Source: Candidatus Iainarchaeum sp.
GTDB lineage: Archaea; Iainarchaeota; Iainarchaeia; Iainarchaeales; DTGL01
NCBI GenBank assembly: GCA_026413945.1
Contig: JAOAJX010000001.1
Span: forward strand, 32,001-96,000
Direction: 5' to 3'
Length of the DNA: 64,000 nucleotides
Positions 43,924 to 47,958 of the stretch are shown piece by piece; position 1 is the stretch's first letter; each line of letters begins with the position of its first letter. Under the pieces are notes generated by a model. It ran no database searches. It was not told the DNA's origin and saw only the letters and a program-made list of their open reading frames with translations. The position numbers and the translations under genes are program-made.

Positions 43924-44664
43924 TTATTTTTTTGGCTTTTTATCTGCTTTAAAGCCAATTGAAATGTGTGTTCCGTCGCAAAATGGTTTGTTGCTAGAAG
44001 CACCACATCTGCAAAGCGTAACCCTGTTTCTTTTCTCATAATAGAAGCCTTTTGACGACTTTATGGGAATGCCGCCTTTTACCCAAATGGGGCCCGAGCA
44101 TTTAGCTTGTGGATCTTCAACAAGAGCAATGCCTTTTTTGTGCTTTGGCTCAATCTTACCTCCGTTTTTTTCGAGAGCAACAAGACGCCCTGAAGGGCAA
44201 TTGCAAGCGGATTCTATTGCAATTTTTCTCATTTTTTTGTCAGAGGATTTTTTAATTAAGTTCCATATGCCATTAGCTCTATGGCAAAACCTTGCTGAAG
44301 CGCAAAGCTCAGGCCAGTCGAGTAAGTCAAGCTCTGGGCCGGAGTATTTTTTAGCTTTCTCTATATAAGATGCGTTATCAGCTGTTTCTGTGCCATCAAA
44401 GTTTATAAGTATGTGAGTGCCATCGCAGTACGGCTTATTTTTTGATCCACCGCACCTACACAAAGCATAGGTTTTTTTGCTTTTAAAGGCCTCTGCTTTC
44501 AACCATTTCTGTGGCTCATTATCCGAACCTATTGCAATGATTTCCTTGCGCAAAGGCACGCGGCCCGAGACAATGTAAGGCCCATTTTCGGTTATATTTA
44601 TTTCAGCGAAAGTTCTTCCCTTTTGCATATTGGCTTTTTTAATATTTTTATTGGAAGAATCCAA
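43924..44664 (-). CDS. CDGSH iron-sulfur protein (two CDGSH domains flanking a divergent 4Fe-4S domain)
   Basis: LCRCGGSKNKPYCDGTH, CASARFC...CPSG, LCRCGASSNKPFCDGTH. Confidence 0.9.
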   Translation of the reverse strand: MDSSNKNIKKANMQKGRTFAEINITENGPYIVSGRVPLRKEIIAIGSDNEPQKWLKAEAFKSKKTYALCRCGGSKNKPYCDGTHILINFDGTETADNASYIEKAKKYSGPELDLLDWPELCASARFCHRANGIWNLIKKSSDKKMRKIAIESACNCPSGRLVALEKNGGKIEPKHKKGIALVEDPQAKCSGPIWVKGGIPIKSSKGFYYEKRNRVTLCRCGASSNKPFCDGTHISIGFKADKKPKK

Positions 44665-46000: not shown

Positions 46001-46756
46001 CTATTTTTTCTCCTTCTTGAAGCAAAGAAACCAATCAATGCAGTGCACATCTGCTTGCTTTTTCTCTGCTCTTTCCTTGGCTGCGCCGCATGATCCTGGT
46101 GCGGGAATAATGACATCTTCGCCTGGCTGCCAGTTTGCTGGCGTAGCAATTCCTTCCTTATCTGATTTTTGCAATGATAAAAGCAGGCGCTTTATTTCCT
46201 GCATATTCCTGCCTGCTGATAAGGGGTAATAAAGTATTGCCCTTATTTTTGCCTTGTCATCTATTATGAAAACAGCCCTTACGGCTTGTGTGCTTGAAGC
46301 GTTTGGCTGTATCATGCCAAATTTCTTTGCGACTTCCATCTTTATGTCCTCAATTACAGGAAACTTTACCTCAACATTTTTGCGCCCTTTATACTCAATC
46401 TTCTCCTTGATTGTTCTTAGCCAAGCGATGTGCGCATATATGCTGTCTATTGAAAGCCCAATGAGTTCCGTATTGAGTTTCTTAAAATCCTCGTGCATTG
46501 AAGCAAACTCTATGAATTCTGTTGTACATACAGGCGTAAAGTCAGCAGGGTGGCTGAATAGAATTACCCATTTGCCCTTGTAATCCTCTGGAAAGTTTAT
46601 TTCGCCCATTGTTGTTCTTGCCTTGAAGGAAGGCGCATCATCGCCTATTAAAGGCATCTTGTTGCAGGAGCATTCGTGCTCACTGCAGCATTTGCATTCG
46701 CAACAACATTTGCAGTGGCATTCACTGCATCCACATTTGCATTTTTGCTCTTCCAT
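46001..46756 (-). CDS. Peroxiredoxin (Prx6/archaeal type) with a Cys-rich N-terminal extension
   Basis: FSHPADFTPVCTTE, VRAVFIID, GRN..EI.R, TPANW.PG, C.DWFLC; start at MEEQKC after a GGGGGT RBS. Confidence 0.92.
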   Translation of the reverse strand: MEEQKCKCGCSECHCKCCCECKCCSEHECSCNKMPLIGDDAPSFKARTTMGEINFPEDYKGKWVILFSHPADFTPVCTTEFIEFASMHEDFKKLNTELIGLSIDSIYAHIAWLRTIKEKIEYKGRKNVEVKFPVIEDIKMEVAKKFGMIQPNASSTQAVRAVFIIDDKAKIRAILYYPLSAGRNMQEIKRLLLSLQKSDKEGIATPANWQPGEDVIIPAPGSCGAAKERAEKKQADVHCIDWFLCFKKEKK

Positions 46757-46766
46757 AAAAACCCCC

Positions 46767-46916
46767 TTATTTATATTTTTTAAGTGCTTTTTCAATGCTA
46801 TATTCCTTTCTTTCAGAAAATTCCTGCCTTTTGCCATCGTTCCAATTTTGGACAGGCCTGTAATAGCCAACAACTCTTGAATAAACCTCTGTCCTTCTTC
46901 CGCATTTCTCATTCAT
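46767..46916 (-). CDS. Stand-alone 49-aa NrdD-type glycyl-radical domain protein; not in the ORF track
   Basis: MNEKCGRRTEVYSRVVGYYRPVQNWNDGKRQEFSERKEYSIEKALKKYK; ATGA overlap with the upstream stop; its TAA abuts the RBS of the peroxiredoxin gene. Confidence 0.9.
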   Translation of the reverse strand: MNEKCGRRTEVYSRVVGYYRPVQNWNDGKRQEFSERKEYSIEKALKKYK

Positions 46917-47440
46917 ATTGCGCCACGCTCTTCAGATAATTGCAAGTGATCGGTTTCAACCTCAACTAATGCCTCGAATATCTGCTTTACCCTTGGGTTT
47001 TTTGATTCTGAAGCTGCTCTGCTGTAAAACTCGATAGCTCTTGTTTCCCTTGCATGCGACTCCTTAAGGTTATCAAGATAATTCACTGAGCAAGAGTCAT
47101 TGCTTTGGGGTATTTCTTTGAGCTTTAATATCTTCTTCCATATGCTTGCGTGCTCTGCCTCAACTTTGCCCAAGGCCTTGAAAAGCTTTTTAGCTTCTGG
47201 ATCATTTGTTTTATCTGCAGCGCAGAAATAAAATGCAGAGTTGCTTACTTCAACTTGCAAAGCATATTCTGCATTTTTCTTGTCCTTTGCGTTCAGCTCA
47301 ACATCGAAGTTTGGCTTTGCGTCGCTGAATGCTTTTACATGCCTTCCACGAGCTCCGCAAAAAGGGCAGCATGTTGGCGGCGCATAGCCAATGTAAGGAT
47401 CTCCACAAATTTCACAAATCCAAAGCTTGGCGTTTGCCAA
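46913..47440 (-). CDS. Reverse rubrerythrin-like protein (N-terminal rubredoxin domain + ferritin-like diiron domain)
   Basis: WICEICG...CPFCGA; E...FY...EAEH and E..A..FY...ETDH; TTG start after AGGTGA. Confidence 0.88.
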   Translation of the reverse strand: MANAKLWICEICGDPYIGYAPPTCCPFCGARGRHVKAFSDAKPNFDVELNAKDKKNAEYALQVEVSNSAFYFCAADKTNDPEAKKLFKALGKVEAEHASIWKKILKLKEIPQSNDSCSVNYLDNLKESHARETRAIEFYSRAASESKNPRVKQIFEALVEVETDHLQLSEERGAI

Positions 47441-47444
47441 AAAA

Positions 47445-47831
47445 TCACCTCTTTTCAGAACATTTTTTGCAAAGGCCTTCAACACACATTATTACTGATT
47501 CTACCTTGAAGCCTCTCATATTTGGCACATCTGATAGCTTTGTACAGAGCTCTTTGTCATTATGGTCTATTATAGAACCGCAGCACCTACAAACGAAGTG
47601 AACATGGCTGCTTCTGTCGCAATCAAACCTATATTCATTATTTACTTTAAATCTTAATATTTTCCCATCATCCGCAAGCTTGTGAAGATTTCTATAGACT
47701 GTTGCTAAGGTTATGGACGGAATTTCCTTGCGGACATGTTCAAAAACCATTTCAGCATTTGGGTGGCTTCTAACGCTGCAAACATATTCCTTTATTTTTT
47801 GCATTTGAATTGTTTTTCTTACCTTCGCCAT
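47445..47831 (-). CDS. perR: Fur-family transcriptional regulator, PerR-like
   Basis: HPNAE, LATVYRNL, RFD....HVHFVC..CG.I.D, C-terminal CKKC; His/Asp/His/His/Asp ligand pattern typical of PerR. Confidence 0.85.
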   Translation of the reverse strand: MAKVRKTIQMQKIKEYVCSVRSHPNAEMVFEHVRKEIPSITLATVYRNLHKLADDGKILRFKVNNEYRFDCDRSSHVHFVCRCCGSIIDHNDKELCTKLSDVPNMRGFKVESVIMCVEGLCKKCSEKR

Positions 47832-47842
47832 ATAAGCCCCTA

Positions 47843-47859
47843 TTGAAAACGATTATCAA
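47843..47859 (-). promoter_or_regulatory. Fur/Per-box-like operator
   Basis: Minus strand TTGATAAT-C-GTTTTCAA, 2 mismatches to the 7-1-7 TGATAATnATTATCA; lies between a TATA-like TTTTAAATA (47874-47882) and the perR ATG. Confidence 0.65.
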
Positions 47860-47958
47860 ATAATATCCATTCTTATTTAAAACCTTTCTGTAGTGTGAAT
47901 CTCAAAAGGTTTAAATATACCTTAAGCCCTATTATCTAAATAAAGTAAAGGTGTTATT

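Follow-up and report, generated by a model that had tools for sequence, protein, structure and literature searches.

Glycyl-radical enzymes are irreversibly cut by oxygen. According to the available passages of one source, only two spare parts that replace an oxygen-damaged domain have been validated, the autonomous glycyl radical cofactors GrcA/YfiD (E. coli) and Y06I (phage T4), both serving pyruvate formate-lyase (PFL), and the existence of spare parts for other glycyl-radical enzymes has been raised explicitly as a possibility (PMC8683613). Sections of two further sources report that oxygen cleaves NrdD, the class III ribonucleotide reductase (RNR), as it does PFL (PMC12288474), and that the glycyl-radical domain (GRD) of NrdD flips out for NrdG (PMC12662201). 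A literature search on NrdD spare parts found none described for NrdD in the titles and passages that it covered. The present work concerns a 64,000-nucleotide stretch of the genome of Candidatus Iainarchaeum sp. (contig JAOAJX010000001.1, positions 32,001 to 96,000; hereafter the window), in which a 49-codon gene on the minus strand (46767-46916) encodes a peptide resembling the C-terminal tail of NrdD, referred to below as the mini-NrdD. The reading that is modestly favored is that this open reading frame (ORF) specifies a functional, free-standing GRD of class III RNR, predicted to act as a stress-regulated spare radical subunit for NrdD.

The mini-NrdD gene begins with ATG, ends with TAA, and is masked by a 303-amino acid “peroxiredoxin” ORF (46001-46912) that overlaps it in another frame. 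The extra N-terminus of that ORF has no counterpart in relatives; the true peroxiredoxin domain begins at the ATG at 46759, and in the same-genus genome G004, peroxiredoxin begins right after rubrerythrin. A first-pass annotation, made from the sequence by a model, had proposed that a 49-codon gene was hidden by this false N-terminal extension, and the gene proved to be real, on the minus strand and with exactly the peptide quoted. Equally accurate was its description of the gene’s two ends: the ATG overlaps the rubrerythrin stop codon as ATGA, with 4 nt in common (46913-46916), and the TAA is followed by GGGGG and then by the peroxiredoxin ATG, 7 nt on. The exact peptide is absent from a collection of 15 billion proteins, and therefore no gene caller had reported the ORF.

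Profile searches agree with the annotation’s identification of the peptide as the C-terminal glycyl loop of NrdD, with Gly17 as the predicted radical site within the motif RVVGY. The peptide matches the PF13597 (NRDD) profile at 44.2 bits (cut-off 26.2; E 1.4e-11) over profile positions 526-562 of 562, it matches four NCBIfam NrdD models on their last ~37 positions (E 8e-13 to 1e-11), and the TIGR02487 match covers positions 545-580 of 581 (E 1.4e-11); as a fragment, it falls below the whole-protein equivalog cut-offs of the NrdD models. While a single-peptide phmmer search of PDB sequences returned nothing at E<=1, a profile of 50 tails matches the solved NrdDs of T. maritima (4COI/4U3E) and P. 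copri (8P23) at chain residues 608-645 and 705-737, respectively, aligning RVVGY with RIVGY in the former and RITGY in the latter. The radical glycine of P. copri NrdD is given as Gly711 in the relevant part of its description (PMC11226230), and Gly17 aligns with this residue when a 4-residue offset, inferred from chain length, is applied. All of the invariant (7/7) and nearly invariant (8/8) positions of the 50 tails are kept in the mini-NrdD, including those in the predicted body-contacting helix at its C-terminus, which would serve in docking. The four-ligand Zn site is incomplete, as the annotation had noted: Cys5, the last ligand, is alone present, C641, H644, and the C654 region sit on the NrdD body, and natural split tails likewise lack the full site. 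Neither the PFL-type Gly_radical profile (PF01228) nor the GrcA models match the peptide at E<=1, and by these comparisons the mini-NrdD is an NrdD-derived analogue of GrcA rather than a GrcA homologue, and belongs to the NrdD tail family.

Set against the described systems, the mini-NrdD would resemble GrcA/YfiD and T4 Y06I in function; for these, portions of two sources describe activation by the parent’s own activase and replacement of the oxygen-cleaved domain (PMC8683613, PMC13450708); both properties are proposed here by analogy. It differs in that its parent is a class III RNR rather than PFL and its family is PF13597 rather than PF01228, and the disordered N-terminal region of the 14.3-kDa YfiD, as presented in part of PMC8683613, is missing from the 49-residue peptide. 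Moreover, its contribution to a shared Zn site is a single ligand, it is archaeal, and it lies within a Fur/PerR-like rubrerythrin/peroxiredoxin operon. With the GRDs of the full-length T. maritima and P. copri enzymes it shares the loop and the following helix, differing from them as a separate polypeptide with its own start codon, with the last of the four Zn ligands only, and encoded away from nrdD. Finally, the split class II RNR of Pseudomonas aeruginosa, NrdJa/NrdJb, also carries a C-terminal Zn-finger part on a separate chain, according to the passages available (PMC9669993), but this enzyme belongs to another RNR class and consists of large pieces, with no glycyl radical and no spare copy.

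The parent enzyme is encoded elsewhere. The genome under study (G000; 0.95 Mb, 21 contigs, 92% complete) carries a full-length, 710-amino acid NrdD on contig C16 with an intact RVVGY loop (NF006126, 1100 bits), and NrdG2 is encoded on the same contig, ~2 kb downstream of nrdD and after aspS (TIGR02495, 210 bits; cut-off 131). Neither nrdD nor nrdG lies within the 64-kb window, in line with the annotation, and two of the circumstances that it had named as fatal to its proposal, an NrdD without a loop of its own and a genome without nrdD and nrdG, do not obtain. Class I/II RNR (PF02867) and the PFL-type glycyl-radical domain (PF01228) were not found in the 92%-complete genome, and NrdD is the only RNR and the only glycyl-radical enzyme detected in it. 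The mini-NrdD, identical to the NrdD tail at 34 of 46 residues (74%), represents an extra copy of the tail and not a missing piece. Among sequencing runs, a search turned up one DNA data set, labelled hot springs metagenome and possibly the source of the DNA, and no RNA data set, which bears on expression in neither direction. A small, stand-alone GRD thus coexists with a full-length parent that keeps its own glycine loop, which is the arrangement looked for in a spare part.

The premise that an NrdD tail can operate in trans is supplied by natural variation in the order. A search of 196 genomes of the order with the mini-NrdD peptide gave 117 matches in 107 genomes, 14 of them in frames of more than 300 amino acids, and 113 matches were classified (those of G149, which was unfetched, and of G138, G177, and G000:C16, which lie in long frames, are not among them). 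The great majority (90/113) are split nrdD genes, in which a short frame directly follows the nrdD body and is usually followed in turn by nrdG; the remainder comprise fused, full-length NrdDs (11/113), PerR/rubrerythrin-linked copies (6/113), tails with nrdG at a contig end (4/113), and two extra copies in a single genome, G112 (2/113). The split tails are separate ORFs of 43-77 amino acids, typically ~50, situated between a tail-less nrdD body and nrdG (loci L015-L121 in the order and L205-L282 in other phyla). At the 89 junctions measured (one of the 90 split loci was left unmeasured), the tail ATG keeps the frame of the body (0) in 18 cases and is shifted by +1 in 39 and by +2 in 32, the body stops are TAA (40), TGA (40), and TAG (9), and the spacer has a median of 2 nt, with 38 junctions overlapping. 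Every tail (89/89) has its own ATG and a Shine-Dalgarno-like motif before it, as judged with a permissive motif set. Recoding or assembly error as the cause of the split was considered and rejected on account of the three frames, the three stops, the tails’ own ATGs, and the occurrence of the split in a complete chromosome.

A retrieval with a bacterial tail gave 80 loci, of which 36 have the same body-tail-nrdG layout; beyond the order it is seen in a complete Brevinematales chromosome, for which the NCBI annotation lists the tail as a hypothetical protein of its own, and in metagenome-assembled genomes of Aquificota, Aminicenantes, Deferribacteres, Leptospirales, and Micrarchaeota. A literature search found no paper describing a split class III RNR, the supplements of RNR phylogeny papers being outside its reach, and in the portion of one source consulted splitting is treated as a class II feature (PMC9669993); split class III NrdD is apparently undescribed. 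By implication, the gene arrangements suggest that the NrdD tail works as a separate polypeptide in many organisms. The natural tails agree with the mini-NrdD in size, in conserved positions, and in a boundary placed just before the last Zn-ligand Cys, and they differ in being the sole GRD of their enzyme, encoded between body and nrdG, whereas the mini-NrdD comes in addition to a fused nrdD in its genome and belongs to a stress operon. The commonness of split nrdD therefore supports function in trans, yet it also means that stand-alone status alone is not special. Three divergent split tails (L073, L078, and L079, of G072, G030, and G033) keep a CxxC pair, placing the split point one Zn-ligand pair earlier, and form a long, fully supported branch of the tail tree.

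What sets the mini-NrdD apart is its genomic company. It is the third gene of a tightly packed, minus-strand cluster in the order perR-like, rubrerythrin, mini-NrdD, and peroxiredoxin, with spacers of 4, -4, and 7 nt. The first gene (47445-47831) encodes a 128-amino acid regulator (PF01475, 77 bits) that its profile matches place clearly in the Fur family, the best NCBIfam matches being PerR models at 81.3 and 80.1 bits and the Fur models reaching <=48. Rubrerythrin (46913-47440; 175 amino acids; PF02915, 43.8 bits) likely starts at the TTG at 47440 behind GAGGTGA, bears N-terminal rubredoxin-like CxxC pairs, and has orthologues of 67-84% identity in G002, G004, G008, G009, G011, G012, and G017. 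The peroxiredoxin (46001-46759; 252 amino acids) has a Prx6/1-Cys type C-terminal domain (NF009668, 340 bits, cut-off 211; PF00578 and PF10417). Upstream, a candidate operator, a 7-1-7 inverted repeat of Fur/PerR type (47844-47858), matches 12 of 14 positions of a Fur/PerR-box consensus, and lies 13-27 nt upstream of the perR ATG, between the start codon and a TATA-like box, TTTAAATAA (47874-47883, minus strand), ~48 nt 5' of that ATG. An equivalent box (11-13 of 14 matches to the same consensus) occurs at -27 to -38 in all six operons compared, and a TTTAAA(T/C)AA element recurs at the same relative place in 6/6; the TATA-like box is a putative promoter element.

Stress-linked minis are present in six genomes of four genera, and every time they follow Fur/PerR-like and rubrerythrin genes. 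The window genome and its same-genus relative G002 share the order PerR-Rbr-mini-Prx; in genus g3, the order is PerR-Rbr-mini-CDGSH/Fe-S protein in G011, PerR-Rbr-mini in G012, and MsrB-PerR-Rbr-mini in G008; and in G017, of another family, it is PerR-Rbr-desulfoferrodoxin-mini, where Rbr and Prx denote rubrerythrin and peroxiredoxin. The neighbors thus include peroxiredoxin, desulfoferrodoxin, MsrB, and a CDGSH/Fe-S protein. A rubrerythrin orthologue was found in 8 of 15 genomes searched, with the mini downstream in six of those eight, and the ORF is intact and start-stop coupled in all five operons of family f1. In genus g3, nrdD is split and has its own adjacent tail, such that the PerR-linked tail is a second copy. 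The annotation had asked whether stand-alone homologues recur near oxidative-stress genes, and they do so in the six genomes with Fur/PerR-like and rubrerythrin genes; most homologues (90/113 in the order and 36/80 loci from other phyla), however, are ordinary small subunits of a split nrdD, which the annotation had not foreseen. A phylum-wide search (215 genomes, 113 with a match) revealed no two-copy genome beyond the order, and among the best 80 loci of a metagenome scan with the mini there were 69 long frames (fused NrdD), 10 loci cut by contig ends, one split nrdD, and none that was PerR-linked; because a universally conserved motif drove that scan, it is uninformative on the frequency of stress-linked copies.

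Two further observations concern the stand-alone copies themselves. The residue just before the radical glycine is Cys in place of Val in four of the six stress-linked minis (L012, L018, L020, and L025) and in a database protein (P0001), Val in the window copy, and Val or Thr in the 105 aligned nrdD-linked tails. In G112, two near-identical extra tails lie on two short contigs (L060, 867-1004, plus strand; L061, 2239-2361, minus strand) besides a split nrdD; each follows a gene with an ArsR-type helix-turn-helix near an FTR1 iron permease, and one has an in-frame stop. Either these G112 copies show stand-alone tails in a third setting, one without PerR, or the bin contains heterogeneous strains.

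The mini-NrdD is under strong purifying selection. Between G000 and G002, 42 codons show 20 synonymous differences over 24.7 sites and nine non-synonymous differences over 101.3 sites, and between G011 and G012 the corresponding counts are 18 and four. Across 15 pairs, the proportion of synonymous differences is saturated (pS 0.77-1.14), while that of non-synonymous differences remains at 0.04-0.26 (pN). A tree of the tails, weak by virtue of its size (111 rows, 42 columns) and leaving out L046, which is without the S/T-R-V/I motif, and tails shorter than 38 residues, unites the five family-f1 minis in one group (81/66; inner nodes 95/84 and 100/87), with moderate support for the group as a whole. 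This group stands apart from the split tails of genus g3 itself (99/93), its neighbors being fused tails from genus g1 (91/86), and the G017 mini is placed with tails of other families (87/69). As the f1 minis group across two genera and apart from the g3 split tails, the gene is a long-established orthologue, not a newly copied pseudogene. Likewise, the idea that the mini is a recent duplicate of its own genome’s NrdD tail was rejected, since the f1 minis cluster with one another across the two genera and not with their own genomes’ tails.

Structure prediction is consistent with the peptide fitting the parent enzyme. The complex was modeled from the organism’s own NrdD residues 1-664 (42-row alignment), Zn, and the mini (50-row alignment), and the mini with this tail-less NrdD gave ipSAE interface scores of 0.86, 0.84, and 0.86 in the three runs, compared with 0.01 for the best of three controls, the score with an unrelated 712-residue protein being 0.01. 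In a calibration set composed without custom alignments or a riding ligand, 58 of 80 solved complexes and 2 of 110 mismatched pairs attained the mark used. The runs share >=93% of contacts, and the partner’s local confidence (pLDDT) is >=80. In the model, mini residues 9-12 pair with residues 637-641 of the body and Cys5-7 lie against Cys654.

Together, these observations allow a working mechanism to be proposed. The mini would be transcribed as the third gene of the Fur/PerR-like, rubrerythrin, mini-GRD, and peroxiredoxin operon, and its translation would be coupled to that of rubrerythrin. Oxygen would destroy the glycyl radical of active NrdD and cleave the chain at that glycine, and the same stress would derepress the operon, so that scavengers of peroxide and a supply of 49-residue GRDs are made at once. 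On the return of anoxia, NrdG2 may install a radical on Gly17 of the mini, which would then take the native tail's position in the barrel of the damaged enzyme, displacing the remaining stub, while Cys5 would complete the Zn site with the Cys/His ligands of the body. The organism’s only RNR found would thereby be restored, with no need to make its 710 residues anew. For the sister genus, with its naturally split nrdD, the gene would supply a second, stress-regulated copy of the small radical subunit. The best-supported reading is accordingly twofold: a GrcA-like spare part in genomes with fused NrdD, and a stress-regulated second small subunit in genomes with split NrdD. The annotation’s own proposal, a repair subunit for NrdD analogous to GrcA, is partly supported: it came through all three computational tests aimed at refuting it, but split nrdD makes stand-alone status by itself unremarkable.

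Several points weigh against a stress-regulated spare part. The gene is dispensable and patchy: G004, of the same genus, has PerR-Rbr-Prx with a 48-bp gap in place of the mini, G009 has Rbr-desulfoferrodoxin without a mini, and a rubrerythrin query did not find the operon in four of six other same-genus genomes. All genomes compared are metagenome bins. The six stress-linked occurrences may amount to one or two evolutionary events, because kin are not independent; the tail tree needs two changes of the stress-linked label, and its starred branches are compatible with one origin. The regulator is PerR-like while scoring under the PerR family cut-offs (180 and 200), and the candidate operator is a consensus match. 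In addition, an oxygen-cleaved fused NrdD retains a stub that ends at the glycine and contains the Zn-ligand Cys, and this stub would need displacing, whereas the modeled body was cut at residue 664. Finally, as solved structures of full-length NrdD exist and the mini shares 74% identity with the native tail, the docking result demonstrates likeness and not binding, and memory of those structures may be its source.

Of the alternatives, the most durable, while itself unlikely, is that the mini is a regulator or decoy, occupying NrdG2 or the GRD pocket of NrdD under stress so that NrdD stays unactivated and uncleaved, or else serving as a sacrificial radical acceptor. Such a role would suit the layout of the operon, which places the gene with stress genes at a time when NrdD activation would be counter-productive, and the NrdG recognition loop that the peptide carries; the Cys substitution before the glycine in four of the six stress-linked minis, unlike the nrdD-linked tails, hints at functional divergence. 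Still, the window copy has the ordinary RVVGY, and a decoy for NrdG2 needs just the glycine loop, yet the C-terminal half of the mini (residues 24-48, body-contacting in the model) is as conserved as in true tails, with W25, N26, G28, K29, E32, F33, and R36 all kept.

Less probable again is a different partner, with the mini acting as the radical-bearing cofactor of an unrecognized enzyme or as a Zn/Fe-binding peptide working with rubrerythrin or peroxiredoxin. The constant separation of the mini from nrdD and nrdG, inside redox operons, is what lends this idea its appeal, along with the Cys/Gly-rich C-terminal extension of the G017 copy, the Cys-rich N-terminus of the window peroxiredoxin, and the proximity of the G112 extra copies to an iron permease. 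However, the genome yielded no further RNR or glycyl-radical enzyme, the sequence constraints on the mini are those of NrdD tails, and its modeled complex with NrdD is a high-confidence one, as opposed to the negligible score obtained with the unrelated protein. A decaying or neutral nrdD fragment, unused in its operon, or a chance ORF, is very improbable: in its favor, the gene has very few codons, does not appear in public protein sets, and is missing from the G004 operon, and one of the two G112 extra copies has an in-frame stop, but the saturation of synonymous sites at low pN, the intact, coupled ORF in 5/5 family-f1 operons, an orthologue group common to two genera, and a profile E-value of 1e-11 all speak against decay. 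The notion of an ordinary small subunit of a split NrdD with no stress link, which is exactly what 90 of the 113 classified matches are, can be given just as little credence, as the window genome’s nrdD is fused, complete, and on another contig while the mini lies between rbr and prx, and in g3 the split nrdD already has an adjacent tail, from which the PerR-linked copy is phylogenetically distinct.

Other features of the operons and of the nrdD loci were recorded in passing. The window peroxiredoxin bears a Cys-rich N-terminal extension of ~30 residues (46664-46759, minus strand) with runs of C-x-C and CCC, shorter in G004, and the G017 mini ends in a Cys/Gly-rich extension (L024, 619-680, minus strand); both may be metal-binding appendages on stress-operon proteins. 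A CDGSH iron-sulfur and Fer4_19 protein is encoded ~1.3 kb downstream of the operon (43924-44664, minus strand), and in G011 the gene immediately after the mini encodes a shorter homologue (L018, 1657-2187, plus strand). Between the operon and the CDGSH gene lies a gene for a 373-amino acid protein with a hydrophobic N-terminus and a putative metal-binding motif of MopE type (PF11617; 44764-45885, minus strand). The NrdD bodies of many relatives contain in-frame insertions of ~0.8-1.2 kb at about residues 277 and 389 (numbering of the window genome’s NrdD), for example at L091 742-1703, L085 907-2072, L094 949-1751, L068 4094-5271, and L074 935-2136, and these look like inteins. A distinct short ORF similar to the ATP-cone at the N-terminus of NrdD (residues 8-100) is located after nrdG in family f3 (L102 3826-4086, L104 2013-2276, L105 1771-2049, L106-L108, and L110).

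Taken as a whole, there is roughly an even chance that the GRD of class III RNR is a modular, exchangeable “fuse”, split off in many archaea and bacteria, of which some Iainarchaeales keep a second copy under a peroxide-responsive repressor of Fur/PerR type, such that the peptide alone is replaced and re-activated by NrdG after oxygen. Gene callers and RNR surveys systematically miss an essential subunit of ~50 residues, and the naturally split NrdDs are ready-made, two-piece enzymes for the study of GRD docking, NrdG recognition, and radical transfer in trans. If the spare-part reading is true, no earlier spare-part system would be known for a ribonucleotide reductase, for any enzyme other than pyruvate formate-lyase, or from archaea. 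The candidate would serve the source of all DNA precursors in an organism in which no other RNR was found, and its confirmation would account for the survival of strict anaerobes with minimal genomes through brief exposure to oxygen, with DNA synthesis preserved.

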